Source of the DNA: Gammaproteobacteria bacterium
GTDB lineage: Bacteria; Pseudomonadota; Gammaproteobacteria; Eutrophobiales; Eutrophobiaceae
NCBI GenBank assembly: GCA_028279365.1
Contig: JANQNX010000016.1
Span: 82,017-146,016 of the forward strand
DNA length: 64,000 nucleotides
Direction of reading: 5' to 3'
The position numbers and the translations under genes were made by a program. The notes under the pieces are model-generated. The model saw only the letters and a program-made list of their open reading frames with translations. It was not told the origin of the DNA and ran no database searches. This document shows, one piece after another, positions 17,034 through 48,463 of this stretch; within the stretch, counting starts at the first letter, position 1, and every line of letters begins with the position of its first letter.

Positions 17034-17226
17034 CGCTCTGCTCCACATCGTATTATCAATGACTTATTATCGATTGTTGCAGGGAAAATAACAAATCATC
17101 ATTAATATCAACGGCTTCATGCGCGTGTAATATCGTTATAAATACTTGATCTATATAGTCGCTTTCGATTCTGTTAGTATTTTTTCAATAAACTCAAACG
17201 ATTTCATCTCCATCACCGAACCAGAA

Positions 17227-17958
17227 ATGAATAGCAATAACTTTGATTACCAGCAGCAGGCCAAACAGTTCGCAGACGAGTCGCCGCGTTCGATTATAAA
17301 ACTGGCGCTGGATTCCTTTGAAAATATCGCTATTTCTTTTAGCGGTGCTGAGGATGTGGTGTTGATCGATCTTGCTGTAAAAATACGATCAGACATTAAT
17401 GTATTCTGCCTGGACACGGGACGGCTTCATGCAGAAACCTATCGTTTTATTGAAACGGTGAGGGAACATTATCAAATCGACATCGATATTCTATCGCCGC
17501 CAACAGAAATCTTGCAGGAGTTTGTCAAAAACAAGGGCTTATTCAGCTTTTATCAAGATGGCCATACTGAATGCTGCGGGATTCGTAAAGTTCTGCCGTT
17601 GAAGAAAAAACTGGCAGAGCTGGATGCATGGATCACCGGCCAGCGAAAAGATCAAAGTCCAGATACCCGTAATGCAGTGCCGGTTATTCAGAAAGACAAC
17701 GCCTTTTCGACGGCAGAAAAAACCATGATTAAATTTAATCCCTTGGCTAACTGGAGCTCGACCATGGTCTGGGAATACATCACGGTCAATAATGTCCCAT
17801 TCAATCCTTTACATGAACGTGGCTATATCAGTATCGGCTGTGAACCTTGTACCAGGCCGGTATTACCTAACCAACATGAACGTCAGGGACGTTGGTGGTG
17901 GGAAGAAGCCACACAAAAAGAATGTGGCTTACACGCCGATAATATGAAGGAAAAATAA
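17227..17958 (+). CDS. cysH: Thioredoxin-dependent adenylyl-sulfate (APS/PAPS) reductase
   Basis: PAPS-reductase fold. CC...C ([13 protein letters not shown]) plus C-terminal CEPC and ECGLH motifs typical of Fe-S APS reductases. ATG at 17227. Confidence 0.8.
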
Positions 17959-17960
17959 CC

Positions 17961-18293
17961 ATGAACATTACCCTGGTAAAAAAAATACTCGCAGACGGCA
18001 CACCCTGTCGAAAATGTGCTGAGGTTCAGGAACGTCTTCAGAAAGAGGGGTATATCAACAGCATCGACAGAACTGTCATTGCTGATGAGCGCGACCCTGA
18101 CAGCGAAGGTATGCAGCTGGCTAAACAGTACCAGGCAGAGCGGGCGCCGTTTTTCATTGTTGAGCATGATAATGATGAAACGACGATTTATACTGTGTAT
18201 TTGAAATTTGTTAATGAAGTATTAAAACAAGCAACCTCTGAAACTGATACTGCTAAAGAAATGCTGGAAAACCACGACCTGGATTTTCTATAA
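17961..18293 (+). CDS. Thioredoxin/glutaredoxin-fold small protein (CxxC = CRKC), co-operonic with cysH
   Basis: Starts 3 nt after cysH stop. CRKC dithiol and beta-alpha-beta topology suggested by sequence. Function inferred from context. Confidence 0.45.
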   Translation: MNITLVKKILADGTPCRKCAEVQERLQKEGYINSIDRTVIADERDPDSEGMQLAKQYQAERAPFFIVEHDNDETTIYTVYLKFVNEVLKQATSETDTAKEMLENHDLDFL

Positions 18294-18304
18294 CAATTTA
18301 ATAA

Positions 18305-19297
<993 letters not shown>

Positions 19298-20707: not shown

Positions 20708-21652
20708 ATGATAATGCCCGCTAAAAAACGATTACAACTTGGCTTGTCTGTTTTTTTACCGTTGTTACACAGCGTGAGTTTAGCTACTGACTTTAATATC
20801 ACCGAATTTCAGCCGGGCATATTTGTTCATCAAGGCCAGCATGTCAGCTTCGAACATGAAAATCGTGACGATATTGCCAACATTGGTTTTATCGAAGGTG
20901 ATGACTGTATCGCCGTGATTGATACTGGCGGCTCAATCGATATTGGCAAAAAACTAAAACACGCAATCGAAACCATTTCAAAAAAACCTGTCTGTTATGT
21001 GATCAATACGCACGTGCATTTCGATCATGTGTTGGGTAATTATGCATTTGTTAATAACGATACAAAATTTGTTGGTCACAAAATGCTGAAAGACGCCATG
21101 GTGGCTAGCACCGAGTTTTTTCTGGATGAATATGCCAATGAACTAGGTAGTAGCAAACAAACGGAAGATACAAAAAACTTAATCGTACTGCCTGATGTAT
21201 TAGTTGAAGACACACTTGAGATTGATCTTGGCAATCGCAAATTGACCTTAACTGCTCATAAAATAGCACATTCACGCAACGATCTAAGCATACTGGATCA
21301 ACAAACCGGGACATTATGGTTATCCGATCTATTGTTCGTGGATCGTATCCCGGCAATTGAAGGCAAGCTCAAAGGCTGGCTCAGCGTGCTTGATGAAATT
21401 AAGGCCTTGGAACCGAATCATGTCATTCCCGGCCATGGAAACCTGGCACTGTCGGTTGACAAGGCAATGGCGCTGCAACATGCCTATTTAATGGAGGTTC
21501 TCACCGAAACACGCAGCATGATCCAGGACGGCGCGTTCATGGAGGACGTCATTGATAAAGTCGGGCAGGAGACAAAAACACAATGGATTTTGCATGAACA
21601 ACATCATAAACGTAACATCAGCAATGCATTTGTTGAACTGGAGTGGGAGTAG
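20708..21652 (+). CDS. Secreted MBL-fold metallo-hydrolase
   Basis: Signal peptide. HVHFDH (HxHxDH) zinc motif plus downstream His/Asp ligands. Confidence 0.7.
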   Translation: MIMPAKKRLQLGLSVFLPLLHSVSLATDFNITEFQPGIFVHQGQHVSFEHENRDDIANIGFIEGDDCIAVIDTGGSIDIGKKLKHAIETISKKPVCYVINTHVHFDHVLGNYAFVNNDTKFVGHKMLKDAMVASTEFFLDEYANELGSSKQTEDTKNLIVLPDVLVEDTLEIDLGNRKLTLTAHKIAHSRNDLSILDQQTGTLWLSDLLFVDRIPAIEGKLKGWLSVLDEIKALEPNHVIPGHGNLALSVDKAMALQHAYLMEVLTETRSMIQDGAFMEDVIDKVGQETKTQWILHEQHHKRNISNAFVELEWE

Positions 21653-31627: not shown

Positions 31628-31671
31628 TGTAAATTAAACCTTACAAATAAAGTTGTCAAGTAATATTTACA
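31628..31671. promoter_or_regulatory. Two TGT-N12-ACA palindromes (PpsR/CrtJ-type operator) upstream of bchC
   Basis: TGTAAATTAAACCTTACA (31628-31645) and TGTCAAGTAATATTTACA (31654-31671), 26 bp apart, in the crtF-bchC gap. Confidence 0.7.
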
Positions 31672-32843: not shown

Positions 32844-33719
32844 TTATGCCGCACTTCTGATAATTTCTTTTGGTAGGAAACGCTCTGACTCTTGCAGCAT
32901 ATGCATCTTTAACGCGTCGGCTCCGGGACACTCAGGGATAGAATCAACCGCTTGTTGCATCAGCGATTTAAACCGTTTGATGGCTCCGGCCAAACCCAGT
33001 TCCTGGCACGCACTGGGACGACCCAATGCGGCATCCTGTCCGGTTGGTTTACCCATCTTTTCCGGATCACCGGCAACGTCGCGAATATCATCCGCAACCT
33101 GATAGGCCTCGCCAATGCAATCGCCAAGTTCACGCCAGTCTTCTGGTTCATAACCGGCAGCAGCGGCACCAGCCATGGTAGCGGCCGAAAATAATGCGCC
33201 GGTCTTGGCGCGTTGGTATTTTGCTAATGAAACAGTGGGTTCAGACTCCCAGGCCTGACCGGCACAAATACCATTTGGCGCACCGACTGAATCGCTGATG
33301 ATCTTGAGTAAGTGACAAAGTCGAGCAGGTTGCCCATTAGTATGGCGAGCTAGCACCTGAAACGCCAATACAATTAATGCGTCCCCGGTTAACACTGCCA
33401 ATGGTTCACCAAACTTTCGATGTACCGATGCTTTACCACGACGGGTTGCTGCATTGTCAAAACAGGGTAAATCGTCATGAATCAATGATGCACAGTGCAG
33501 TAGCTCAATCGCAATCGCAGCGGCGTTCGTGACATCACAATCATCTTCCTTACAGGCAATGGCGACTGCCATGCATAGCTTGGGTCGAATCCGGGCACCA
33601 CCGGAAAATACAGTATAATCAATGGCTTCGGCTAACTTAGCGGGACAATCAGGCGTATTCGAGACAGAAACAGCATCAATAAGACTATCGTTTATTCTTT
33701 TTATCGTATCCATACTCAT
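32844..33719 (-). CDS. crtE: Geranylgeranyl diphosphate synthase
   Basis: Polyprenyl synthase motifs LIHDDLPCFDNAATRRGK and DDIRD. Start set at MSMDTIK (ATG 33719); the ORF-track N-terminal extension is Cys-rich and unlikely. Confidence 0.8.
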   Translation of the reverse strand: MSMDTIKRINDSLIDAVSVSNTPDCPAKLAEAIDYTVFSGGARIRPKLCMAVAIACKEDDCDVTNAAAIAIELLHCASLIHDDLPCFDNAATRRGKASVHRKFGEPLAVLTGDALIVLAFQVLARHTNGQPARLCHLLKIISDSVGAPNGICAGQAWESEPTVSLAKYQRAKTGALFSAATMAGAAAAGYEPEDWRELGDCIGEAYQVADDIRDVAGDPEKMGKPTGQDAALGRPSACQELGLAGAIKRFKSLMQQAVDSIPECPGADALKMHMLQESERFLPKEIIRSAA

Positions 33720-33729
33720 ACCCCCAGAG

Positions 33730-33783
33730 TGTAAATTTAGACTGACACATAGATACAGTTTCTTATGTAAGCTAATATAGACA
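33730..33783. promoter_or_regulatory. Two TGT-N12-ACA palindromes (PpsR/CrtJ-type) in the divergent crtE/crtD promoter region
   Basis: TGTAAATTTAGACTGACA (33730-33747) and TGTAAGCTAATATAGACA (33766-33783). Confidence 0.7.
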
Positions 33784-33827
33784 CATGTACAGCCTAAGTC
33801 AATTTGATCTGAGCAATCACCACTAAC

Positions 33828-35330
33828 ATGTCCGAACAACAAGCTATTGTGATTGGTGGAGGTATCGGTGGTTTGAGTGCGGCAGTCGAACTGGCCGCCT
33901 CGGGACAAACGGTTACGCTACTGGAAAAGTGTCCCCAGGCCGGTGGCAAAATGCGCGAAGTCAATGTGCAGAATAAATTGATCGATTCCGGGCCAACCGT
34001 GTTCACCATGCGCCAGGTATTTGAGGATATTTTTCATATTGCAGGTACAGAACTGTCTGATCACATCCAGCTTGATCCGGTGATGATTTTGGCAAGACAT
34101 GCCTGGAGCGAAGAAGAACGGCTGGACTTATTTGCTGACATACAACAATCCGCTGATGCGATTGGTGACTTTTCGGGCAAACATGAAGCACAAAACTATT
34201 TACAGTTTTGTGCAACGGCTAAAAAGATCTATCAGTCCCTGGAAAAACCGTTCATGCTGTCTTCACGACCCTCCCCATTAACACTGACCCGACGTATTGG
34301 TTTGAATAAACCGGTCGAACTCTGGCGCCTGAATCCTTTTGTCACTTTGTGGAAAACACTTGAAAAACAATTTAGCGATAACCGTATTCAACAATTGTTT
34401 GGTCGTTACTCAACATACATGGGTTCCTCCCCTTACCTGGCACCGGCAACCTTAATGTTAATCGCACATGTTGAGCAGGATGGTGTCTGGACTGTCAGGG
34501 GCGGCATGTATCGATTAGTAGAAGCATTGATCTCAGTGGCAAAAAAACTTGGCGTCAAATTTCGATACGATGCAAACGTCAATGAAATCGTGGTTCATAA
34601 AAATGCCGTTGCCGCCGTCTCACTTGAGTCCGGTGAATCATTTCAAACTTCATCAGTAGTGTTAAATGCTGATGTGAGTGCACTGGCATCAGGTCAGTTT
34701 GGTGACACGATCAAAAAGTATGTACCGCCGATCAAACCGGATGAACGTTCACTGTCCGCAATCACCTGGTCGTTAAATACCACGACACATGGATTTCCGC
34801 TTGTCAGACATAATGTTTTTTTTGGTGATGATTATGCCAGTGAGTTTGATGATATCTTTACTAAAAAAACGTTTCCGAACAAACCAACCGTGTATGTTTG
34901 TGCCCAGGATCGCCATGATCAAACACAGCTTGGGCAAAATGAAAAAGAACGTTTGTTTTGTTTGATTAATGCGCCGGCAAAAGGTGATAAACATCAATTT
35001 AGCGAAAGCGAAATTAATAGCATTGAACAACGTGGGTTTGATTTAATGAAACGCTGCGGTTTTCATATTAATCGTGAACAGGATAACGCTGTGATTACCA
35101 CACCAGCAGAGTTTGAAAAATTATTTCCCACCACAGGTGGGGCATTATACGGCAGGGCCTCACATGGTTGGCTGGCTTCATTTAAGCGTCCCGGCTCACG
35201 CACCAGTGTCAATGGCCTTTATCTGGCTGGCGGTAGCGTACATCCCGGTGCGGGTATTCCAATGGCAGCGATATCCGGCAGGCTGGCCGCGACTAGCGTA
35301 ATTGAAGATAGCTTATCAGCAAAAAAATAA
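33828..35330 (+). CDS. crtD: Carotenoid 3,4-desaturase (hydroxyneurosporene/methoxyneurosporene desaturase)
   Basis: FAD-binding IVIGGGIGGLSAA. Phytoene-desaturase-family C-terminus. Position divergent from crtE, followed by crtC. Confidence 0.75.
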   Translation: MSEQQAIVIGGGIGGLSAAVELAASGQTVTLLEKCPQAGGKMREVNVQNKLIDSGPTVFTMRQVFEDIFHIAGTELSDHIQLDPVMILARHAWSEEERLDLFADIQQSADAIGDFSGKHEAQNYLQFCATAKKIYQSLEKPFMLSSRPSPLTLTRRIGLNKPVELWRLNPFVTLWKTLEKQFSDNRIQQLFGRYSTYMGSSPYLAPATLMLIAHVEQDGVWTVRGGMYRLVEALISVAKKLGVKFRYDANVNEIVVHKNAVAAVSLESGESFQTSSVVLNADVSALASGQFGDTIKKYVPPIKPDERSLSAITWSLNTTTHGFPLVRHNVFFGDDYASEFDDIFTKKTFPNKPTVYVCAQDRHDQTQLGQNEKERLFCLINAPAKGDKHQFSESEINSIEQRGFDLMKRCGFHINREQDNAVITTPAEFEKLFPTTGGALYGRASHGWLASFKRPGSRTSVNGLYLAGGSVHPGAGIPMAAISGRLAATSVIEDSLSAKK

Positions 35331-36399: not shown

Positions 36400-36768
36400 C
36401 TATTTATCTACCGTTACCGGCACGTATTCCACTTCGCGATAAGATGTTGTCAGTGTAATCCAGACCCCATAGCTGGTAAGCGCAAACAACACACCGACTA
36501 AATCAAACAGCGTGAAGTATTGCGTTTTATCCATGACCATATAAAGGATCACAAACAGTATCCCCATTGTGCCCAAACCAAAGCGGATGAGCGGCGGTAA
36601 AAAATCTCCCATCATTTGCATGGAAGGATGGGTCGCCACTGGTTGCATATCCGGATGCTGAGTTTTATAGAACTCTCTACTTTGTATTACTCGCTTACGT
36701 TGATTAAACGCGGAATATAATATCCAGCTACCAGCGACAAATAAGATAATTCCGACCATATATTGCAT
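36400..36768 (-). CDS. Small 3-TM membrane protein downstream of crtB (unknown function)
   Basis: ORF with three hydrophobic helices. It sits where tspO/crtK lies in Rhodobacter but is not TspO-like. Confidence 0.4.
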   Translation of the reverse strand: MQYMVGIILFVAGSWILYSAFNQRKRVIQSREFYKTQHPDMQPVATHPSMQMMGDFLPPLIRFGLGTMGILFVILYMVMDKTQYFTLFDLVGVLFALTSYGVWITLTTSYREVEYVPVTVDK

Positions 36769-36795: not shown

Positions 36796-37857
36796 CTAAT
36801 TAACACTCTCTACCTGAACGATACGATCTTTCTTTTCCAGTCGTTCAAATATATTTATAACATTCAAGAATTGTTCTTTGACGTTCCACCAGGGAATCGG
36901 TTTCCAATTATCTTCATCGTTCAGGACAGAGCCGCTGTTATTAGCCAGCATTGCACTGATCAAAAACCAGGAAGCGTCGTAGTGTTTACATTCATCATGA
37001 CTTTGCAACTTGCCTGACTTGACAACCGAATGCGTTAGTAACACAACTTTGCGTGATGTCGGCACAACCGTACGAGTAGAAACAGAATCCCTGCCTTCTC
37101 TTGATAACTGACAACCGATCTCGCGATAGATGGCAGCGGCGGCCAATATTGCTGGTCGACACGCTCGCGGTAACATTGAAATACCATATTCAGCCTGTTG
37201 ATACAGATCGTCGGCGGTATCTATCACACGCTCAATCACCTTACCCAAAGCAGGACTAAAATGCGGATCCTGTAACCATTCATCCGGATCGATCTGTTCT
37301 TCTCGTAACCATTCGCGGGGTAAATAGAGTCTGCCGTTTTCGGCATCTTCACCCACATCCCGCGCAATATTGGTGAGTTGCATGGCCATACCAAGTTCAC
37401 AGGCTCTGGCAATGGCATCCGCAGAACGCGCACCCATGATCGCTGCCATCATGGCACCCACCGTTCCCGCTACTCGCGCGGAATAATCATGCAAGTCTTC
37501 GATGCTTTCATATTCCTTGCCAATAACATCCCAGGCAAAGCCTTCAAGTAAGCCTTCCGGAAAAGCACGAGGTATTGAGAATTGCTTTACGACGCTGGCA
37601 AAGGCGCGATCTTCCGGATGGATAGAATCCACATTGGAATAGATTTGATTTAATCTTGAATAGAGTTCTGTGAGTGCGGCATGCGGGTCGATAGCGTTGT
37701 CAATCGCATCATCGGCAACACGACAAAAACCGTAAAGTGACGCGGCAGGTTTCCTGATATCCGGCGGTAATAATAATGAAGCAGTATAAAAAGATAATGA
37801 ACCGCCTCGAAGTCGATTCAGACAGACACGAATATCAGTTTGCTGTTCTGTTCCCAT
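36796..37857 (-). CDS. crtB: Phytoene synthase
   Basis: Squalene/phytoene synthase motifs (YCYRVAGTVG-like ARVAGTVGAMM; DxxxD-type regions). Confidence 0.85.
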   Translation of the reverse strand: MGTEQQTDIRVCLNRLRGGSLSFYTASLLLPPDIRKPAASLYGFCRVADDAIDNAIDPHAALTELYSRLNQIYSNVDSIHPEDRAFASVVKQFSIPRAFPEGLLEGFAWDVIGKEYESIEDLHDYSARVAGTVGAMMAAIMGARSADAIARACELGMAMQLTNIARDVGEDAENGRLYLPREWLREEQIDPDEWLQDPHFSPALGKVIERVIDTADDLYQQAEYGISMLPRACRPAILAAAAIYREIGCQLSREGRDSVSTRTVVPTSRKVVLLTHSVVKSGKLQSHDECKHYDASWFLISAMLANNSGSVLNDEDNWKPIPWWNVKEQFLNVINIFERLEKKDRIVQVESVN

Positions 37858-37942
37858 ACCACCGCCTTTTACTCACCAGCAATGACCTGCTAGCGGCCTC
37901 TTTTTAAATATAACTGCATGATTTTATTGTACTAATATGCAG

Positions 37943-37985
37943 TGTAAATATAATGATACACTCTAATTGTAACAATATATTGACA
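37943..37985. promoter_or_regulatory. Two TGT-N12-ACA palindromes (PpsR/CrtJ-type) between crtB and the divergent ATP-grasp gene
   Basis: TGTAAATATAATGATACA (37943-37960) and TGTAACAATATATTGACA (37968-37985), 25 bp apart. Confidence 0.7.
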
Positions 37986-38028
37986 CTAATTGCACGCGTT
38001 ATTCGATCCCATTAACGGAAGCTAAAAT

Positions 38029-39159
38029 ATGACAACACATGTACTGTTAACTTTGGGGCGCATGCCGAAAGGGCTAGACCTTGCTCGCGGCTTCGCCGCA
38101 GCAGGTTGTGACGTCTATGTCGCCGATCCGCATGCGAATCATATTTCGCGCTATTCCAATTCCGTAAAAGAATGCTTCACCGTAACAGCACCGAATGACT
38201 CGGCAGATGATTTCGTAGATGACTTACTTAATATTGTTAAAGACAAGGCGATTGATATCGTCGTGCCTATTTCAGAAGAATCGGTTTACACCGCCAAACT
38301 AAAAGTCAGGCTACCAGAACACGTCATATTTTTCGGACCCGGTTTTGATGTCGCGCGTCGACTGCACGATAAATATGAATTTAATCGTTATTTAGTAGAG
38401 TTAAATTTACCGGCGCCGGAAACTGCATTATTAGGCACCGATGAAGCCAATGAACTGGTGCAGCAACACGATGTTATCGTCAAACCCATTCACGCTTCAG
38501 CCGGCATCGATATCATCACCGTAAATCAAGGTGATAGTTTACCCTCAGCGACCAACCGCCCTTCTCTTGTGCAACAACAATTACGTGGCAGATTGTTAAC
38601 CAGTTTATCGGTGGCAAAAGATGGACAGTGTTTACAGACCGGCATCTACGAAGGGCGTATCTTCACCGGTAGCGTTGCCATTGCCTTTGAACGTGTTAAT
38701 GATGCTGAAGTCGTTCAAGAGTTTGCGAAACGGTTTATTGAAGATAGTCATTACACCGGATTTATTTCATTCGATGTGTTTATTGAAAATGATAACAACG
38801 CCTATGCGATTGAATGTAATCCAAGGCTTACCAGCGGCATTCATTTATTTAATACAACGGATGTTGCCAGGGCCATTATGAGTGAGGCAGTGCATCCAGA
38901 AATCGCTTTACGTGAAAGGCTCTCTTTTCAACACTTTTGGCCAGCCTTAGGGACAACAGAGATGTCATTAATCAAAGGAGGTCCGTTTAAACATAACCTG
39001 AAGCACTTTTTAAAAAGCTCAGATGTGACCTGGTCTCGACACGATATCAAACCCTTTTTAATGATGAATTTTTGTTCTGGCGAGATTTTAAAAAAATATT
39101 TCTTTGACAAGATGTCACTGGGTGAAGCAAGTATTACCGATATCGAATGGCGCGAATAA
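38029..39159 (+). CDS. ATP-grasp family carboxylate-amine ligase (unknown substrate)
   Basis: ATP-grasp fold features: Rossmann-like N-terminus, central KPxxxSAG-type region, and C-terminal E-C-N-P-R metal/ATP motif (AIECNPRLTSGIHLF). Confidence 0.6.
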   Translation: MTTHVLLTLGRMPKGLDLARGFAAAGCDVYVADPHANHISRYSNSVKECFTVTAPNDSADDFVDDLLNIVKDKAIDIVVPISEESVYTAKLKVRLPEHVIFFGPGFDVARRLHDKYEFNRYLVELNLPAPETALLGTDEANELVQQHDVIVKPIHASAGIDIITVNQGDSLPSATNRPSLVQQQLRGRLLTSLSVAKDGQCLQTGIYEGRIFTGSVAIAFERVNDAEVVQEFAKRFIEDSHYTGFISFDVFIENDNNAYAIECNPRLTSGIHLFNTTDVARAIMSEAVHPEIALRERLSFQHFWPALGTTEMSLIKGGPFKHNLKHFLKSSDVTWSRHDIKPFLMMNFCSGEILKKYFFDKMSLGEASITDIEWRE

Positions 39160-40539
39160 TTACTGACGTTTTTTCACTCGACATTGAATCTCATGCTTGG
39201 GTCGCGTTGTGAGTCTGGCAACCGGCTTCACTTTTTCTTTATCGAACAATTCAAAATCAAACGCACGAACAATTGACGCGAGGATTAAGGTACTTTCAAT
39301 CTGTGCGAACGTCGCACCGGCGCAGACTCTCGGGCCTTGTCCGAAGGGAATATAGCTTCCTCTGACTATGTTTCCCTCTCGTTCCTGACTAAAACGATCC
39401 GGATCAAACAGTTCCGGTTCATCCCAAAGTTTTCTATGCCGATGAATCGCCCACGGTGCAATCATAATCATCGCGCCGCGTTTAATCTTCTGTTTCCCTA
39501 TCTTGCAACTCTCGGCAGCGACTCTGGGGATAAACGTTAGCGGCGGATACAACCGTAAGGTTTCGCGAAACACATTACGCGTATAAGGCAACTTTTTAAT
39601 ATCATCAAAGCCAATCTTGTTTTCGCCAACAGCCTGATCCACTTCATCGCGAATGCGCTGTGCCACCTCCGGTCTTGATGCAATAATAAAAAACGCCCAG
39701 GTTAAGACACTAGCCGTCGTCTCATGCCCAGCGAGAAAAAACACGCCTAACTGATCGATCAATTCATCCCGGGTAAACCCTTCACCGGTGTTTTCATCGC
39801 GCGCATCGACAACGGCGCGAGCCAGGCCATCTGCCGCTGCTTCATTAACAATCGATTCATCAATTAATACGCCCAGCTGTTCGCGAATACGTTTACATGC
39901 TGCCAACACTTCATCGGTTTGTTTGATATCGCTCCAGGCCTTACCAAATATCAATTGCGATAGCTTGACGTTAGACACACTGCGCTCAAATAAAGAGAAA
40001 CTTTCAAAGACATCCATCGCTACGTCGGATTCCAATGATTTGGAAAACATCGTGCGACAGATAATATCGGCCGTCAGATGGCTCATAGAAAAATCCAGCG
40101 AGAAGGTTTCACCTGATTCACTACGTTTTGTCAGCGTGTCTTGAAACTGATCGACTGCAGCCTGCATAGCATGAAAGGCATTCCCCAAACGGATAAAGGA
40201 AAACGCCGGTTCCACCATCTTGCGTTGGCGCTGCCAGGTTTCACCATCAGACACAAATAAAGAATCCCCGACCAACGGCGCCAACGCGCCTTTCATCAAA
40301 TCATTCTTTGGAAAAATATCAATCGCATCCGTCATCACATGGCGCGTGTATTCCGGTTTATTGACAATAATGATCGAGCGACGTGAATAGCCGAGCGTGC
40401 CGATATCGACTTCATAGGCGTCCTTCGGTAGCAGGCTCAGCAAATCGCCTTCACCACTGGCAATACTGCGCACCAATCCCATTAGTGGTGATAGTGGTTT
40501 CGGGCAAGGCGGCCGGAATAATGACTCAGCTGCGTTCAA
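39160..40539 (-). CDS. Cytochrome P450 monooxygenase
   Basis: Heme-ligand loop FGQGPRVCAGATFA. I-helix AGHETT. K-helix ETLRLYPP (ExxR). Confidence 0.9.
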   Translation of the reverse strand: MNAAESLFRPPCPKPLSPLMGLVRSIASGEGDLLSLLPKDAYEVDIGTLGYSRRSIIIVNKPEYTRHVMTDAIDIFPKNDLMKGALAPLVGDSLFVSDGETWQRQRKMVEPAFSFIRLGNAFHAMQAAVDQFQDTLTKRSESGETFSLDFSMSHLTADIICRTMFSKSLESDVAMDVFESFSLFERSVSNVKLSQLIFGKAWSDIKQTDEVLAACKRIREQLGVLIDESIVNEAAADGLARAVVDARDENTGEGFTRDELIDQLGVFFLAGHETTASVLTWAFFIIASRPEVAQRIRDEVDQAVGENKIGFDDIKKLPYTRNVFRETLRLYPPLTFIPRVAAESCKIGKQKIKRGAMIMIAPWAIHRHRKLWDEPELFDPDRFSQEREGNIVRGSYIPFGQGPRVCAGATFAQIESTLILASIVRAFDFELFDKEKVKPVARLTTRPKHEIQCRVKKRQ

Positions 40540-40599
40540 CTTAGCTCCTGATTATTTTTATCTTAAGGTCTGTACACTCAGCCATAACTTAGCAATACT

Positions 40600-41331
40600 T
40601 TGACTATGTTCATAGTGCACGCGTTTGAGACTCTTGTCATGATGCATATCGTGACGGGCAGTGTCGGCCTTGTGAGTTTATGGATACCGCTGCTGACTAA
40701 AAAAGGGAATAAACTGCATAAAAAAAGCGGCCTGATCTTTGTTTATTCCATGCTGGCAACCGGTACGATTGCAACCGGTATCAGTACCTGTACTCTACTC
40801 GCACCCGTGGACACGCATCCACATTTACTCAATCACCCTGACTTTGGTGATGGGCAAACAATCAGAGTGATCTTCGGCTGGATGATGCTATATCTCGCCT
40901 TCCTGACAATCAACCTCGCCTGGTATGGCTGGCGTTGCGTAACAACGAAAAACGATAGAAAAGCCAACCGCCGATGGGAGCAGAATATCTCTCAAGTCAT
41001 ACTATTAATACTGTCACTCAATGCCATGTACCATGGCTTGGTGAATGATGTGTTGCTGGTCGCCGGGATTTCCTTTGTCGGTATTGCCACCGTCGCGACG
41101 AACTTATGGTTTCTCTATAAACCTAAAGCCAAACCTATCGACTGGTTATTGGAACATATTAAAGGATTAGTCGGCGCAGGGATTTCAGTCTACACGGCCT
41201 TTCTTGCATTTGGTGCAGTCAGATTATTACCGGAAGCGGCATTAACACCTTTTCTTTGGTCAATACCTTTAATTACAGGATTAACAATAATTATTTACCA
41301 GCAATATCAAGTAAAACGTAAAACTGCATAA
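40600..41331 (+). CDS. Polytopic membrane protein (6 predicted TM, unknown function)
   Basis: Hydrophobic segments throughout. Divergent from the P450 gene with a 60-bp gap. Confidence 0.45.
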   Translation: MTMFIVHAFETLVMMHIVTGSVGLVSLWIPLLTKKGNKLHKKSGLIFVYSMLATGTIATGISTCTLLAPVDTHPHLLNHPDFGDGQTIRVIFGWMMLYLAFLTINLAWYGWRCVTTKNDRKANRRWEQNISQVILLILSLNAMYHGLVNDVLLVAGISFVGIATVATNLWFLYKPKAKPIDWLLEHIKGLVGAGISVYTAFLAFGAVRLLPEAALTPFLWSIPLITGLTIIIYQQYQVKRKTA

Positions 41332-41373: not shown

Positions 41374-43665
41374 ATGGCCGACTACGATTTTAAAGCATTA
41401 TCATTTTGGGAATTCGAGCAAATTTCAAGGGATTTGCTTAGAAATGCGTTAAATATTGATTTTGAATCATTCAAGTCAGGTAAAGATCAAGGCATAGATC
41501 TTAGACATGCATCTGACAATAAAGGGGAAATCATAGCTCAATGCAAACATTATGCTAATTCAACTTATTCGGATCTTAAAAATACAATTAAGAAAGAAAA
41601 AGTTAAAATAGATAAATTAAAACCCAATAGATACATACTAATAACATCGTTAGGTCTGACGACAAAAAACAAAGAAGAAATAAAGTCAATATTAGGTAAA
41701 CACCTTATCTATACAAAAGATATCGTTACAAGAGAGACTCTAAATGGTTGGCTTGTTGATTTTCCGAAAATTGAAAGATCATATATAAAATTATGGGCTA
41801 CTACTGGAGTAGCTTTAAATCAGATTATAAAAAGTCGAATATTCAATTATTCTCTCTCTCAAATTGAAGAATTAGAAACAAAAATTAAGTACTTTGTAAA
41901 AAATCAATCGTTCGACGAATCAATCAAAATATTACAAGCTCAAAAGTTTTGTATTATTGCTGGCATACCCGGAATAGGAAAAACAACATTAGCTGAAATG
42001 CTATTAGTAGATTTTTTACGTCGAGATTTTGAGCCAATAGTAATCACTAGTGATATTGAAGATGCATTTGACGTCTTCGATAAGGATGCAAAGAGAATAT
42101 ATTATTATGACGATTTTCTTGGTCAGACTGGTCTGGAACAAAAATTAAATAAAAACGAAGATGCCAGAATCGTAGAGTTCTGCAAGCTATGTAGAAAAAC
42201 AAAAAACTCTTATTTCATACTAACAACAAGAGAATATATTTTAAATCAGGCAAAGGCCACATATGAGAAACTGGAAAAATCAGGAATAGATAAAAGAAAA
42301 TGTGTGATTGATCTGAAAAGCTATAGTGATCTTGAAAAAAGCAAAGTTCTTTATAATCACATTTACCATAGAAAACTACCTGACAAATATAAAAAAGCTC
42401 TTTTAAAAGATCATGGATATTTAAAAATAATTGATCATAAATCTTTTAATCCTAGAGTCATAGAATGGATGGTAGATTCTGAAATGATTTCAGATATTCC
42501 GCCCGAAGATTACCTAGACAGCTTTATTTATAGATTAAACAATCCTTCTGCAATCTGGTCACATGCATTTAACAATCAAATATCTGACCATGCGAGACAC
42601 TTAGTTATGAGCTTGCTTACGTGTTCTAGATTTGCTTATTTGAGTGATTGTAAAAAGGTGTTTGAGAATTTACGGCATTATTTATCTAATAAGTACAATT
42701 TCGGAATGACTGCAAATGAATTTAATACTGCTTTAAAAGAAGTCGAAGGAAACTTTATTAGCGTAAGTTTAGTAAACAATCAGCAAATCATACATTTCCA
42801 TAACCCTTCTATCATCGATTATGTGTCATATTATTTATCTGAAAATACTGAAATAGTACAAGATATTATTTCTTCGTTTACTCACTTTGATCAATTCATT
42901 AATTTATGGAATATATTTACAAATTTTGAAAAAAACCCATTGCTGCATGAAGATGTTAAAGACATATTTATGTCTTGTTTAGCTAAACATTATGGTACTG
43001 ATGGAATCAATCTTACAAGATATAACAATATTATCGGCAAACCAATTTACGCATATTCATCTTCAAGCATTGAGATCCAAGTCATTATTGCATTGAATCT
43101 TGAACTAGATAACTACAATCACTCTTTTATTCAAAATACAAAAGAAATAGTTGACGATTATTTTACTAACATGGGTATAGAAGTAATTTGGTCACGAGTG
43201 AAGCAATTATTAATTGATCTGGAAAATAAAAAAGAAGAACTGCAACTAAACATAGACAACTATCTTATAAAGTCCGTCAATTTACTATCAGAAAACTTAA
43301 CTCAAATAAATGATTACAAACAGTTAGCAGATATATCTAAAATATCAAATGTAACAAAAGATATTATTGATGAAAAAATACAAATGATTGAACAAGATTT
43401 AATTGCTGGGTTTGAAGATGAAGTCGAATTCCATAGAAATGATAATGATGTAAGTGAATTACAAGATTGTCTTAGTGATATAGAAGATATTGAAATTATA
43501 TTTGATTTTAATTTATATGAACAGAAAGAATATATAGAAACTATTCTTAATGAATTAGGCGATCCAGATGAAATTTATAATGATGAATACAGTAATATAT
43601 CAACTAAATCTAGCACAAACACTAACACTTCTGAGATTATAGATATATTTAATACGCTAGAGTAA
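41374..43665 (+). CDS. Mrr-like PD-(D/E)xK nuclease domain fused to STAND/NACHT-like P-loop NTPase (candidate antiphage protein)
   Basis: N-terminus FEQISRDLLRNALNIDFESFKSGKDQGIDLRHAS ... IIAQCKHY parallels the Mrr catalytic core (GDGGIDL ... QCKRY). Walker A IIAGIPGIGKTT and Walker B IYYYDDFLG. C-terminal helical/repeat region of about 360 aa. Confidence 0.65.
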   Translation: MADYDFKALSFWEFEQISRDLLRNALNIDFESFKSGKDQGIDLRHASDNKGEIIAQCKHYANSTYSDLKNTIKKEKVKIDKLKPNRYILITSLGLTTKNKEEIKSILGKHLIYTKDIVTRETLNGWLVDFPKIERSYIKLWATTGVALNQIIKSRIFNYSLSQIEELETKIKYFVKNQSFDESIKILQAQKFCIIAGIPGIGKTTLAEMLLVDFLRRDFEPIVITSDIEDAFDVFDKDAKRIYYYDDFLGQTGLEQKLNKNEDARIVEFCKLCRKTKNSYFILTTREYILNQAKATYEKLEKSGIDKRKCVIDLKSYSDLEKSKVLYNHIYHRKLPDKYKKALLKDHGYLKIIDHKSFNPRVIEWMVDSEMISDIPPEDYLDSFIYRLNNPSAIWSHAFNNQISDHARHLVMSLLTCSRFAYLSDCKKVFENLRHYLSNKYNFGMTANEFNTALKEVEGNFISVSLVNNQQIIHFHNPSIIDYVSYYLSENTEIVQDIISSFTHFDQFINLWNIFTNFEKNPLLHEDVKDIFMSCLAKHYGTDGINLTRYNNIIGKPIYAYSSSSIEIQVIIALNLELDNYNHSFIQNTKEIVDDYFTNMGIEVIWSRVKQLLIDLENKKEELQLNIDNYLIKSVNLLSENLTQINDYKQLADISKISNVTKDIIDEKIQMIEQDLIAGFEDEVEFHRNDNDVSELQDCLSDIEDIEIIFDFNLYEQKEYIETILNELGDPDEIYNDEYSNISTKSSTNTNTSEIIDIFNTLE

Positions 43666-43909
43666 AGATTTTCATTACCATATTAGCTAATAACTTCTAC
43701 CTCTTTCTCATTTAGCCCCAGTAAGCAGTGTAGCTCATTCGCAAAACCGAGACCCGCTTCGGCATGGATATTAAATATGCTCTACGCCCATCTCTCGTAA
43801 ATCCCCTTTTTAATAAAACCAAAAGGATCAGTATCGATTGAAAAGCAGTTCATTTGATCAAATTGGGAATTTAATTTTTAATCAACGTGTAGCTATCTAT
43901 AGAAAACCA

Positions 43910-44278
43910 TCACTGCCACTGACTAGCATCATTACATCTTGGATCGGATATTATTTTTTTAGATAATGATGCTTCATAAGCGAGGCCAGCGCATTGACCA
44001 ACCTTTGTTCCCCATAGTGTGCCGTCTTTCGGCTGTATCATGACATCAGGGATTTGTTCTTCAACCTCCTTTAAACATATCCGTGTTGCTGATGCGGCGG
44101 CTTCTTCGCATTCAACGGCAGTCACATCAAAACACTGCCTGAAATATTGTTCGGAATTGCAAAACGCGGCGGGTAGTGCGCTCTTCATCCCGGTAATCCA
44201 ATCCTCTTTTTTCACTTCCTGAGAATGAACAGTGATAGAAAACAAAACTAATAAAAATAAGACGATATTTTTCATCAT
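43910..44278 (-). CDS. Small secreted Cys-rich protein (6 Cys) of unknown function
   Basis: Signal peptide MMKNIVLFLLVLFSITVHSQ plus six cysteines in about 100 aa. Confidence 0.4.
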   Translation of the reverse strand: MMKNIVLFLLVLFSITVHSQEVKKEDWITGMKSALPAAFCNSEQYFRQCFDVTAVECEEAAASATRICLKEVEEQIPDVMIQPKDGTLWGTKVGQCAGLAYEASLSKKIISDPRCNDASQWQ

Positions 44279-44326
44279 AGCGAATCCTTCATATTAAGAG
44301 TTATAGTTTAGGAACAGCTCGTTTTG

Positions 44327-45382
44327 TTATTCTCTGACCTTTGGTTCACCTGTCTCAGCATCAATCCTGTCAAGAGATGGTCCCTCATATTGAGCTAAAA
44401 TTAAATCTACAACAGCTTCGCCGTATTTAGCAAACCAGAAGTCCCCCATCTGTTTTAGTTTTTTAATATTTGACTGACTAATATCATCCATGGCGTCATC
44501 AGGTGGATTAGGTAAGCCAGGCTGTTTTTTCATTTCAGTATTAACACGAATATAATTGCCTTGCTTTAAAAGGGTATACGCTTGATAGGCGACAACTCTT
44601 TCATCTGTTAACAAGTCAAGTATATGACCTTTTGTAAACCATTCTAAAGCGCCCCATTTTTGTGACTCTGGACCATTTATTTTTCTGGTGCGATATCCCG
44701 TTCCCACAGACAATACGCGTAAATCCTGAATGTGTTCAGTTGACCAAATCTTGATGGCTTAGGCAATTACACACATTGTAGGATTATTAGCTGTCACCCC
44801 TCCATCCACCAGCCAAAATGCACTCTCAATATTTTTCATTGCTAATTCTTTGGTGGGGAAATAGGTTGGTGCAGCACTGGACGCATCTGCTACCTGCCAA
44901 GACTGTAACTTGCGATGTGTCTTATCGGTTGATTTAATAACGACAGGTTTTCGGCGTTCTATTCCATAGGTTACAACCAAAACATGTTTGTTGTTTGCTA
45001 CATTGCTTAACTTTGCTGAACCCAGTTTCTGTTCCAGTAATTTTGACTTTCCTTTTGCTTCATATTTTGGCGCATTGATACCATCCCATTCAAACCAGCC
45101 TCTATTATCGGAAAATATTTTTTTTGCATTTTGATAGTTATATAGCTTATTAATATCCGCCATCGCCATATCAGTCGTAGCTAATGCAAGCGCGATAATA
45201 CTTCCCGTACTGGTTCCTGCATAAAAATGCACACAATCGCGTAAACTTTTATTATGGTCAGTTTTAAGCTTGTTCTCAACATGAGTAAGAAACTGGGTCG
45301 TAGCAGCTCCGCGTATACCACCGCCATCCAATGAAAGAATTAATTTTGACATATTACCTCCTTGTTTAAATAATCTTAGCAA
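44327..45382 (-). pseudogene. Patatin-like phospholipase interrupted by one in-frame TAA (44759-44761)
   Basis: Upstream part carries the oxyanion hole DGGGIRG, the nucleophile GTSTG and the catalytic DGG. Translation through the stop continues in frame (...PTMCVIA*AIKIWSTEHIQDLRVLSVGTGYR...) into the conserved patatin C-terminus (SVGTG). Both ORFs share frame (starts 45382 and 44713, both 1 mod 3). Confidence 0.7.
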
Positions 45383-45589
45383 TAAGATTTTAAGTGATCG
45401 CCATAATATAACATTGCATAATCAATTTATGGCTTTTCACTAACAGATTAATACTAACTGGTTATAAATCAACTAAATCATCATCGAACTGATGTAAAGT
45501 AATGCCAGTTATATAAACAGAAATTCGGGTTTTTAAATTATGTGCAGTATTAAAATGAGTAAAAATCTTTGCACTATACATAAAAGCAT

Positions 45590-47173: not shown

Positions 47174-48463
47174 TTATTCAAGATGTTTTACACTCTCTCT
47201 GATACGTCTAATGCCAAATGCAACCGCAATCGCAACTAACGGAATACTCGCTGCTGTGATTATGTAGCCTTTCTCAAGTAACCCGGCACCTTCTGCACCT
47301 TTTGTTAAATAACTGACTAGACCAACAATATAATAAGTAATGGCGGCGATAGATAATCCTTCAACTGTTGTTTGAAGACGAAGCTGTAATTCAGCACGCC
47401 GATTCATTGAGTGCAATACTTTTTGATTTTGTTCACGTCGGGTCATTTCAACGCGAGTTGATAATAATTGTGTTGCTCGAGCCACCCGGGTTGATAAAGA
47501 TTCCTGGCGGTTTGCGACCATTCGGCAGGTGTCTATCGCTGGAACCAGGCGTCGTTCTGTAAACTCACCAAAGGTCTGCAAGCCTCTTATACGTTGTTCG
47601 CGTAATTCCTGGATTCGTCTCTCGACCAACGAGTAATAAGCGTTGGCAGCGCTAAACCGATAGTGATGTTGCGAGTGATGGCTTTCTATCTCTGCTTGTA
47701 GACTGGTTAACCTCTCAAGCAGATTTGACTCTTTTTCTCCTGATTGCGTTAAAGCATGAGTAATCTCAGCCAATTCCTGTTCGCTTTCGTTGACATGAGG
47801 CGATAGTGTTCGTGTCAATGGCAAGGTCAATAAAGCCAGCATACGATAAGTGTCAACCTCGAGTAATCGCTGGATCATTCTGCCCGCCTGTCTGGCTTTC
47901 ATACCGTGGTCTGCCACCCACAAGCGACCAAAACCATTTTCATGAATTTTAAAATCGGTTAAGGCAGTCGCCACACCGCCGTCAATGGCCGACCCTACCA
48001 GCACATTACCGTTAAATCGTTTTTTTGAGAGGCTTTCATAGTCATTTGGTGGGTTTTGTCGACGTACCAATGCCACATTTGTGGCCACCAGTATTCTACC
48101 GGGTAAAGCACTAAGCCAGTCCGGTTCAAGTTGATTAATAATGGGGGAAACAAAGGCATCATCACCAGTCATCGGACTGATAAATAGATAGCGTGTAAAT
48201 TCAGTATGGCGCTCCCACTTCAATCTGAAACTGCCAAAATCTGCACTATGATGTTTAATCTTTAAATGGGGTAGTTTTTGATCGTACTTCTCGGCCAACA
48301 TGGCGACAGGTTCAATATCTTTGATAGATAAATCCCAATCCGTATGCAACGCAATATAGGAAAGTTTTAACGGTGCTTGTAGTGGTTCAGAAGGTCTGGC
48401 ATGTACCTCATTATTTAATTCCAAACGCAGTTCATGATCAGTAGGTAAAGCAATTATCGACAT
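47174..48463 (-). CDS. Conserved hypothetical protein with C-terminal 2-TM anchor (DUF3422-like?), between bchO and crtI
   Basis: ORF with a soluble domain of about 330 aa followed by two hydrophobic helices. Family name uncertain. Confidence 0.4.
   Translation of the reverse strand: MSIIALPTDHELRLELNNEVHARPSEPLQAPLKLSYIALHTDWDLSIKDIEPVAMLAEKYDQKLPHLKIKHHSADFGSFRLKWERHTEFTRYLFISPMTGDDAFVSPIINQLEPDWLSALPGRILVATNVALVRRQNPPNDYESLSKKRFNGNVLVGSAIDGGVATALTDFKIHENGFGRLWVADHGMKARQAGRMIQRLLEVDTYRMLALLTLPLTRTLSPHVNESEQELAEITHALTQSGEKESNLLERLTSLQAEIESHHSQHHYRFSAANAYYSLVERRIQELREQRIRGLQTFGEFTERRLVPAIDTCRMVANRQESLSTRVARATQLLSTRVEMTRREQNQKVLHSMNRRAELQLRLQTTVEGLSIAAITYYIVGLVSYLTKGAEGAGLLEKGYIITAASIPLVAIAVAFGIRRIRESVKHLE

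Follow-up and report, generated by a model that had tools for sequence, protein, structure and literature searches.

The window analyzed here, a stretch of 64,000 nucleotides from contig JANQNX010000016.1 of a gammaproteobacterial assembly (GCA_028279365.1), holds a typical proteobacterial photosynthesis gene cluster (PGC), in which three genes encoding an ATP-grasp ligase, a cytochrome P450, and a polytopic membrane protein (hereafter the trio) lie between crtB and an AT-rich island (Table 1). Annotation with NCBIfam and Pfam gives, from left to right, pufML, bchZYXC, crtF, and crtE on the minus strand, crtD and crtC on the plus strand, a small membrane open reading frame (ORF) and crtB on the minus strand, the trio, the island, and then crtI, DUF3422, bchO, bchD, bchI, puhE, acsF, puhCBA, lhaA, bchM, bchL, and bchH, all on the minus strand; the cluster continues past the right end of the window. 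Since crtE, crtB, crtI, crtC, crtD, and crtF accompany the trio, an acyclic, spirilloxanthin-type carotenoid pathway is encoded (the crtB product also matches SQS_PSY in Pfam). The ATP-grasp and P450 genes are convergent, and their stop codons abut without any spacer. An earlier note on this DNA had described the trio as a functional cassette inside the PGC that is not a known component of such clusters, with a host-like GC content. We agree on both points (the GC content of the trio, 0.43-0.48, is that of the rest of the window), and the ORFs, the 171-bp region upstream of crtB, its two palindromes, and the abutting stops all lie where that note had placed them.

Table 1. Features of the window discussed in the text (positions refer to the 64,000-nucleotide stretch).
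Feature	Position	Strand	Description	Family match
Sulfur assimilation genes	17146-19279		APS/PAPS reductase cysH, regulator cysB; left of pufM	
Metallohydrolase gene	20708-21652		quinoprotein-relay metallohydrolase; left of pufM	
Second palindrome pair	31628-31671		starts at 31628 and 31654; upstream of bchC	
crtE, program-called ORF	32844-33908	-	TTG start; overlaps the crtD start by 81 bp	
Third palindrome pair	33730-33783		starts at 33730 and 33766; crtE/crtD divergent region	
crtD	33828-35330	+		
Small membrane ORF	36400-36768	-	122 aa, predicted membrane protein between crtC and crtB	none
crtB (phytoene synthase)	36796-37857	-	divergent neighbor of the ATP-grasp gene, operator region in common	PF00494 (E 2.2e-71); NCBIfam PhytnSynCrtBRhod (E 2.9e-109)
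crtB/ATP-grasp intergenic region	37858-38028		171 bp, AT-rich	
Palindrome 1, PpsR/CrtJ-type	37943-37960		exact TGT-N12-ACA, TGTAAATATAATGATACA	
Palindrome 2, PpsR/CrtJ-type	37968-37985		exact TGT-N12-ACA, TGTAACAATATATTGACA; begins 25 bp after the start of palindrome 1	
ATP-grasp ligase gene	38029-39159	+	376 aa	PF02655
Cytochrome P450 gene	39160-40539	-	459 aa	PF00067
P450/membrane gene intergenic region	40540-40599		60 bp	
Membrane protein gene	40600-41331	+	243 aa, histidine-rich, polytopic	distantly DUF2306-like
AT-rich island	41374-45500		between the membrane gene and crtI; GC 0.27-0.35 (0.27-0.33 at 41.4-43.9 kb)	
Island ORF	41374-43665		763 aa	Mrr_cat + nSTAND3 NTPase
Island ORF	43910-44278		small, hydrophobic N-terminus resembling a signal peptide	
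Island ORFs	44759-45382 and 44327-44713		patatin-like phospholipase, apparently split	
DUF3422 gene	47174-48463	-	between crtI and bchO	DUF3422 (E 1.3e-155)

The trio is widely conserved. A profile-based scan with one genome per species returned at least 593 relatives of the ATP-grasp ligase, and for the best 80 of these we compared gene order by tblastn with the window's proteins. Across these 80 loci, the trio is almost always complete and adjoins crt genes. In fifty-two loci, the ATP-grasp gene has flanks of 3.5 kb or more to either side; in this well-flanked set, the P450 gene stands beside the ATP-grasp gene throughout (52/52), both the P450 and the membrane protein gene accompany it in 49 loci, and at least one of crtB, crtC, crtD, and crtI lies nearby in 48, with a median trio span of 3.3 kb. 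Conservation beside crtB and crtI in related phototrophs, which the earlier note had proposed to check, is thus strongly supported. The nearest genomes are gammaproteobacterial metagenome-assembled genomes (MAGs), with 63-66% identity. Metagenomic contigs with a 64% identical ATP-grasp protein carry the arrangement crtD-crtC-crtB, then (divergent from crtB) the ATP-grasp, P450, and membrane protein genes, followed by crtI-DUF3422-bchO-bchD-bchI, and the AT-rich island is missing from them.

Going by the taxa named on the sequence records, trio loci occur in Gammaproteobacteria (Congregibacter, Steroidobacterales, Acidibacter, and a "Chromatiaceae" MAG), in Alphaproteobacteria (Roseomonas, Falsiroseomonas, Roseococcus, Hyphomonadaceae, Anderseniella, Hyphomicrobium, Sphingomonadales, Caulobacterales, and Salaquimonas), in Betaproteobacteria (Methyloversatilis, Burkholderiales, and Usitatibacteraceae), in Gemmatimonadaceae, and, from an additional search, in a Myxococcaceae MAG. 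Apart from the latter, the trio is found mainly in lineages known as aerobic phototrophs, including Gemmatimonadota.

Within these loci, the P450 and membrane protein genes are divergent neighbors in almost all cases, and the ATP-grasp gene takes one of three positions: convergent with the P450 gene as in the window (35 loci), downstream of the P450 gene (27 loci; membrane gene on the far side and divergent), or downstream of the membrane protein gene (5 loci). The site of the trio within the PGC varies as well. It lies between crtB and crtI in the window, between crtF and bchC in locus L020, in L089, a Gemmatimonas-like genome whose puhA shows the characteristic split, between the puh operon (puhC) and crtI-cruF, and between crtC and crtD in the Myxococcaceae MAG (L090). 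The trio is therefore a conserved part of PGCs in independent lineages, and its repeated rearrangement with the three genes kept together near crt genes is strong evidence for a common function tied to carotenoids. Median identities to the window are 55% for the P450, 53% for the membrane protein, and 38% for the ATP-grasp protein, next to 63% for crtI, 49% for crtD, 46% for crtB, and 44% for crtC; judged by these values, the P450 and the membrane protein appear to be under purifying selection comparable to that on core crt enzymes. A separate arrangement is seen in the complete genome of Congregibacter variabilis (CP136864.1; L085, 7423-12228), where the trio and crtD form a four-gene group with no other pigment gene, surrounded by genes for HiPIP, a pyrroloquinoline quinone (PQQ)-dehydrogenase, a major facilitator superfamily protein, and fatty-acid oxidation, and not by bch or puf genes. 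This genus has either a split PGC or a relocated carotenoid module.

This synteny also bears on one alternative, in which the three genes are unrelated passengers that arrived by local insertion, like the AT-rich island, and the palindromes serve crtB only. An island of plainly foreign character (with an nSTAND3/Mrr NTPase and a patatin-like gene, at a GC content of about 0.29) does lie directly downstream, and palindromes upstream of crtB would be expected anyway. However, the trio has a host-like GC content and is kept as a unit across Pseudomonadota, Gemmatimonadota, and the Myxococcaceae MAG, and its closest counterparts lack the island. The passenger explanation is contradicted by the synteny of the trio, and we consider it very improbable. 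We likewise rejected the trio as a part of the AT-rich island itself, on account of its GC content and of the closest relatives that keep the trio without the island. Instead, we favor, with a probability of roughly 0.6, a reading in which the trio is one conserved module that extends the acyclic, spirilloxanthin-type carotenoid pathway by a tailoring branch dependent on oxygen.

The P450 matches its Pfam family far above the threshold (E = 2.4e-82; 277.6 bits against 22.8; residues 17-442) and is a member of the superfamily with all signature motifs intact: AGHETT270 in the I-helix, ETLR326 (ExxR), PDRF380, and the Cys-ligand loop FGQGPRVCAG399. It is soluble and has no N-terminal membrane anchor. 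The best-scoring solved sequence is Arabidopsis CYP97A3 (LUT5; E = 5.9e-53), with 32.7% identity over 376 aligned residues, and CYP97C1 is also found among the solved matches, lower in the list. Both CYP97A3 and CYP97C1 are carotenoid ring hydroxylases of the plant chloroplast.

The histidine-rich membrane protein has 1727 homologues, all of them unnamed or hypothetical; among the 120 best homologues listed, with the window's own sequence excluded, identities range from 54 to 87%. Residues H16, H40, H73, and H79 are invariant and H186 is nearly so, and the motifs THPHLxxHPDF and EHIKGLVGAGISVYTAF are highly conserved. The AlphaFold2 (AF2) model (predicted local distance difference test, pLDDT, of 90) contains seven long helices, and hydropathy indicates 6-7 membrane segments, so that the six transmembrane segments counted in the earlier note were approximately right. 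Ten of 23 orthologues match DUF2306 (E ≤ 0.1, best E = 1.3e-5), and UniRef names the Congregibacter variabilis orthologue a DUF2306 protein. One fungal DUF2306 membrane protein, PraC, is required for terminal epoxidation in pramanicin biosynthesis (PMC12895699), and a structure-based screen placed DUF2306 among predicted heme-binding families (bioRxiv 10.64898/2025.12.11.692455). The four invariant histidines are compatible with the heme binding and oxidative tailoring proposed for this family, and the conservation pattern suggests that the membrane protein is probably not merely a passive partner. In the public record, the protein (P0121) has 230 residues and starts 13 codons downstream; because orthologues cover the longer N-terminus, including an invariant F9, TTG 40600 or ATG 40606 is the more likely start.

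The ATP-grasp protein matches ATP-grasp_3 above the Pfam cutoff (E = 3.6e-10; 40.6 bits against 23.2) and is predicted with high confidence to adopt the three-domain fold of the superfamily (pLDDT 92.5), with the carboxylate-amine ligases PurD/T/K, PylC, and BacD as fold neighbors. Residues K152, E262, N264, and R266, which correspond to the ATP-binding lysine, the E-x-N Mg ligands, and the catalytic arginine, are invariant in 26 orthologues, as is the surrounding motif IECNPRxTSG (E-x-N-x-R), and in 2pn1 they correspond to the VKPxxG and EINPR motifs. Given these invariant ATP and Mg residues, the protein is probably an active ligase. NCBIfam PRK06849 aligns end to end (model positions 5-382 of 389) with a score of 245 bits, below the equivalog cutoff of 406.

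More distant full-length paralogues (26-30% identity) are encoded on plasmids. For example, Pontibacillus and Paraburkholderia plasmids (L086, 6031-11255; L087, 2793-9273; 26-29% identity) carry a recurring cluster of KAS III, ATP-grasp, NAD(P) oxidoreductase, metallo-beta-lactamase (MBL) hydrolase, and F390-synthetase-like genes, with or without a GNAT gene, which appears to represent a likewise uncharacterized pathway. At most, this context hints at hydrophobic acyl substrates for the wider ATP-grasp family. In Gemmatimonadota (L007, 4718-5806; L089, 8437-9435), an MBL-fold (Lactamase_B_2) hydrolase gene directly follows the ATP-grasp gene, and in L007 a FAD-dependent (DAO) oxidoreductase gene lies upstream as well; both may be lineage-specific additions to the module. 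We considered whether this hydrolase is the MBL protein of the plasmid clusters and rejected the idea, finding no specific relatedness.

The plasmid paralogues enter the argument for a second alternative, namely that the trio modifies another lipophile of the photosynthetic membrane (the tail or ring of bacteriochlorophyll, a quinone, or a lipid) and that its proximity to crt genes reflects the packing of the PGC. Their KAS III/F390-synthetase/oxidoreductase clusters suggest fatty-acyl-type substrates, the module lies inside PGCs beside bch or puh genes in some lineages (L020, L089), and five trio loci have no crt gene in reach. On the other hand, the immediate neighbors are crt genes (crtB, crtC, crtD, crtI, or cruF) in 48 of the 52 well-flanked loci, crtD is the sole pigment gene that moved with the trio in Congregibacter variabilis, and the best solved relatives of the P450 are carotenoid hydroxylases. 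For bacteriochlorophyll a, we know of no biosynthetic step that still lacks an enzyme. We therefore regard this alternative as unlikely. The earlier note had named carotenoid or bacteriochlorophyll derivatization and quinone modification as candidates for a lipophilic substrate; carotenoids fit best among these, given the crt linkage and the CYP97 relatives, and the chemistry that would follow is set out below.

The region between crtB and the ATP-grasp gene carries two exact TGT-N12-ACA palindromes. Palindrome 1 overlaps the -35-like TTTACA of a 10/12 promoter-like site directed at crtB, and palindrome 2 overlaps the -10-like hexamer of a 9/12 promoter-like site directed at the ATP-grasp gene. 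The arrangement typical of the PpsR/CrtJ regulon, two nearby palindromes overlapping a promoter, is thus present here at the level of promoter-like hexamers. L005 and L006, the two closest relatives, have intact palindromes that align with both of these; the copies in L001 are degenerate, palindrome 2 with one mismatch. Taken singly, TGT-N12-ACA sites show no enrichment in the window (24 against an expected 20.5), so their count alone is uninformative. Closely spaced pairs, in contrast, occur three times against 0.15 expected in simulations matched to local composition (P(≥3) = 0.001), and the probability of at least two sites in the 171-bp region is 0.002. The other two pairs lie at positions that, from what is known of PpsR in Rhodobacter, we take to be classical PpsR/CrtJ targets (Table 1). 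The pairing is non-random. PpsR, the presumed regulator, would bind the two palindromes between crtB and the ATP-grasp gene, and at least the latter gene is probably co-repressed with pigment genes. Regarding the third pair, the true start of crtE is probably an internal Met near 33719 and not the program-called TTG, and with this start a divergent region remains between crtE and crtD that contains the palindromes at 33730 and 33766.

From the gene content and the protein families, we infer a substrate, an order of reactions, and a product for the proposed tailoring branch. The soluble, CYP97-like P450 would oxidize a methyl group of the carotenoid to a hydroxymethyl, aldehyde, or carboxylate group, possibly stepwise. 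The DUF2306-like membrane protein would act in the bilayer as a second oxidative enzyme, probably heme- or metal-dependent; alternatively, it may be a membrane-side partner that hands the P450 its substrate or electrons. The ATP-grasp ligase would then activate the carboxylate as an acyl-phosphate and join it to an amine or hydroxyl partner, and its gene would be expressed together with crtB from a bidirectional promoter region in common, overlapped by the two PpsR/CrtJ-type palindromes.

Published work leaves a gap that this proposal would fill. The antenna carotenoid of Gemmatimonas, gemmatoxanthin, bears a 19'-oxo (aldehyde) and a 16-oic acid group, and the enzymes that form these groups are unknown (PMC8342508). 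Similarly, according to a 2023 review, no genes are known for rhodopinal or for steps of glycosylation and acylation (PMC10604819). The trio adjoins crtI and cruF in Gemmatimonas-type PGCs, and it is cultured Gemmatimonas that produce gemmatoxanthin. It is possible, although we hold this version only tentatively, that many aerobic anoxygenic phototrophs have such a branch, in which the P450 and a heme- or metal-dependent membrane oxygenase of the DUF2306 type oxidize the methyl groups and so supply the missing enzymes for cross-conjugated pigments with aldehyde and carboxyl groups, gemmatoxanthin among them. The ATP-grasp ligase, which would be the first of its kind in carotenoid chemistry, would then link the carotenoic acid to an amine or hydroxyl partner, giving a conjugated carotenoid that has gone unseen in pigment analyses. 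No description of the trio was found in the full-text literature searched, whose coverage leaves out most subscription journals. The statement in the earlier note that such a system is undescribed for purple-bacterial PGCs is upheld to this extent, with the amendment that the distribution of the module extends beyond the purple bacteria, narrowly defined. A paper on a Citromicrobium PGC does mention a P450, which we considered as a published instance of the trio and rejected, since it is only a flanking gene.

The taxonomic distribution also permits a third explanation, in which the trio handles oxidized carotenoids or other pigments (for clearance or repair), or makes an apocarotenoid-type signal, in phototrophs exposed to oxygen. 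The P450 requires oxygen, and most of the named taxa are known as aerobic anoxygenic phototrophs. Plain spirilloxanthin is the main carotenoid reported for several of these groups, which would leave no obvious major tailoring product. However, the conservation of the trio and the operator region in common with the biosynthetic crtB suit biosynthesis better, an ATP-consuming ligase would be unusual for a clearance route, and trio-bearing Gemmatimonas-type PGCs go together with a major oxidized antenna carotenoid (PMC8342508, PMC12817894). We judge a role in clearance, repair, or signaling to be quite unlikely.

Several observations weigh against the trio as a carotenoid-tailoring module. Five loci (L010, L037, L064, L069, and L071) have no crt gene within the available flank, and hence the link between trio and crt genes is not absolute. 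The uncharacterized bacterial P450 7wzl scores just behind CYP97A3, and the 32.7% identity to the latter falls short of the ≥40% amino-acid identity by which a P450 family is defined; by this nomenclature rule, the similarity to CYP97 is one of clan level and not family membership. ORF clustering over more than 80 loci recognized no conserved ferredoxin, reductase, or transferase partner: the frequent clusters outside crt and bch that could be placed lay on the opposite strand of conserved genes (e.g., 39788-40144 in the window), and the remaining frequent clusters carried no annotation. The membrane protein of the window itself scores below the Pfam threshold for DUF2306 (PF10067; E = 0.004; 17.8 bits against 31.6) and would be a distant relative of this family at best, and no solved structural relative of its model was found. 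As for regulation, the operator does not extend to all three genes. The P450 and membrane protein genes diverge from a 60-bp region of their own, which contains no exact TGT-N12-ACA site, and only 16 of 68 corresponding regions in other loci contain one, so that the regulatory link recurs without being universal at the level of the exact motif. Moreover, ppsR is not among the annotated ORFs of the window, beyond whose right end the PGC extends. The PpsR-type co-regulation with pigment genes put forward in the earlier note therefore holds for the ATP-grasp/crtB promoter, and the term "PpsR operator" is justified for these two genes only. Finally, a carotenoid with an amide- or ester-linked carboxylate is not documented for these organisms, and the carboxyl group of isolated gemmatoxanthin is free, so that no product is known for the ATP-grasp step.

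Comparison with the closest known systems helps to place the carotenoid-tailoring proposal. P450s in carotenoid pathways are already known, whereas we know of no ATP-grasp enzyme described in such a pathway and of no DUF2306-like protein in one. Like CYP97A3, CYP97C1, and bacterial carotenoid P450s such as CYP175A1, the window protein is a heme-thiolate P450 with canonical I-helix, ExxR, and Cys-loop motifs, and its gene stands among carotenoid genes. The activity of CYP97 enzymes, however, is ring hydroxylation, and the acyclic products of the window's pathway (crtC, crtD, crtF) offer no ionone ring for it. No described carotenoid P450 has the setting of the window family, in which a DUF2306-like gene is the divergent partner and an ATP-grasp gene is linked. 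CrtA, the spheroidene monooxygenase, is the enzyme of PGCs already known to tailor carotenoids with the use of oxygen, and in Rhodobacter it is subject to PpsR-type control. The proposed branch resembles it in relying on an oxygen-dependent heme enzyme for acyclic carotenoids encoded in the crt part of the PGC; CrtA works alone, whereas the window module comprises three different proteins, including an ATP-dependent ligase. CrtA is an oxygen-dependent heme enzyme and not a P450 (PMC10604819).

The membrane protein shares with PraC (PMC12895699) a polytopic architecture, a tailoring context, a weak DUF2306 match, and a hydrophobic, polyene-like product, the latter being a prediction for the window; it is bacterial and has 243 residues, whereas PraC is fungal, has 393 residues, and acts by a mechanism that is itself unknown. 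The ATP-grasp protein is only 10-18% identical to any solved member of the superfamily, including PurD, PurT, PurK, PylC, BacD, and other L-amino-acid ligases. In comparison with these, it has an extra conserved C-terminal helical region (approximately residues 290-376) with invariant D332, D339, P342, D371, and W374. It aligns over its full length with the PRK06849 "hypothetical protein" family and the plasmid paralogues, but the gene context of the paralogues is entirely different.

PGCs are among the best-studied bacterial gene clusters, yet a trio without an assigned function recurs in them in at least several hundred species-level genomes. If the tailoring proposal is true, the trio would supply candidate genes for the oxidation of methyl groups to the aldehyde and carboxyl functions of carotenoids, for which two papers describe the enzymes as unknown (PMC8342508, PMC10604819), the ATP-grasp ligase would be a new enzyme class in carotenoid biochemistry, and the orphan DUF2306 membrane family would gain a bacterial, genetically tractable setting. 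As cultured carriers of the trio exist (Congregibacter variabilis, Roseococcus suduntuyensis, and Falsiroseomonas spp.), the proposal is directly testable.

Several neighboring features of the window deserve mention. The AT-rich island downstream of the trio, which encodes an NTPase with a Mrr_cat domain, a small ORF, and a patatin-like phospholipase (Table 1), is possibly a defense island. The corresponding junction between the membrane protein gene and crtI holds nothing in L005, a Na+/H+ exchanger gene in L001, and a different insert of about 3.5 kb in L006; with such varied content among relatives, it looks like an insertion hotspot. The small membrane ORF between crtC and crtB has a counterpart at the same place in L006 (69% identity), and only a 41-aa ORF is found in L001. 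No pufC was seen among the window's ORFs of at least 150 aa. Sulfur assimilation and metallohydrolase genes (Table 1) lie directly left of pufM, which sets the left boundary of the PGC near 23.7 kb. Orthologues of the DUF3422 protein encoded between crtI and bchO are found in or near the PGC at 13 other loci, making this a further conserved PGC-linked gene without a known function.

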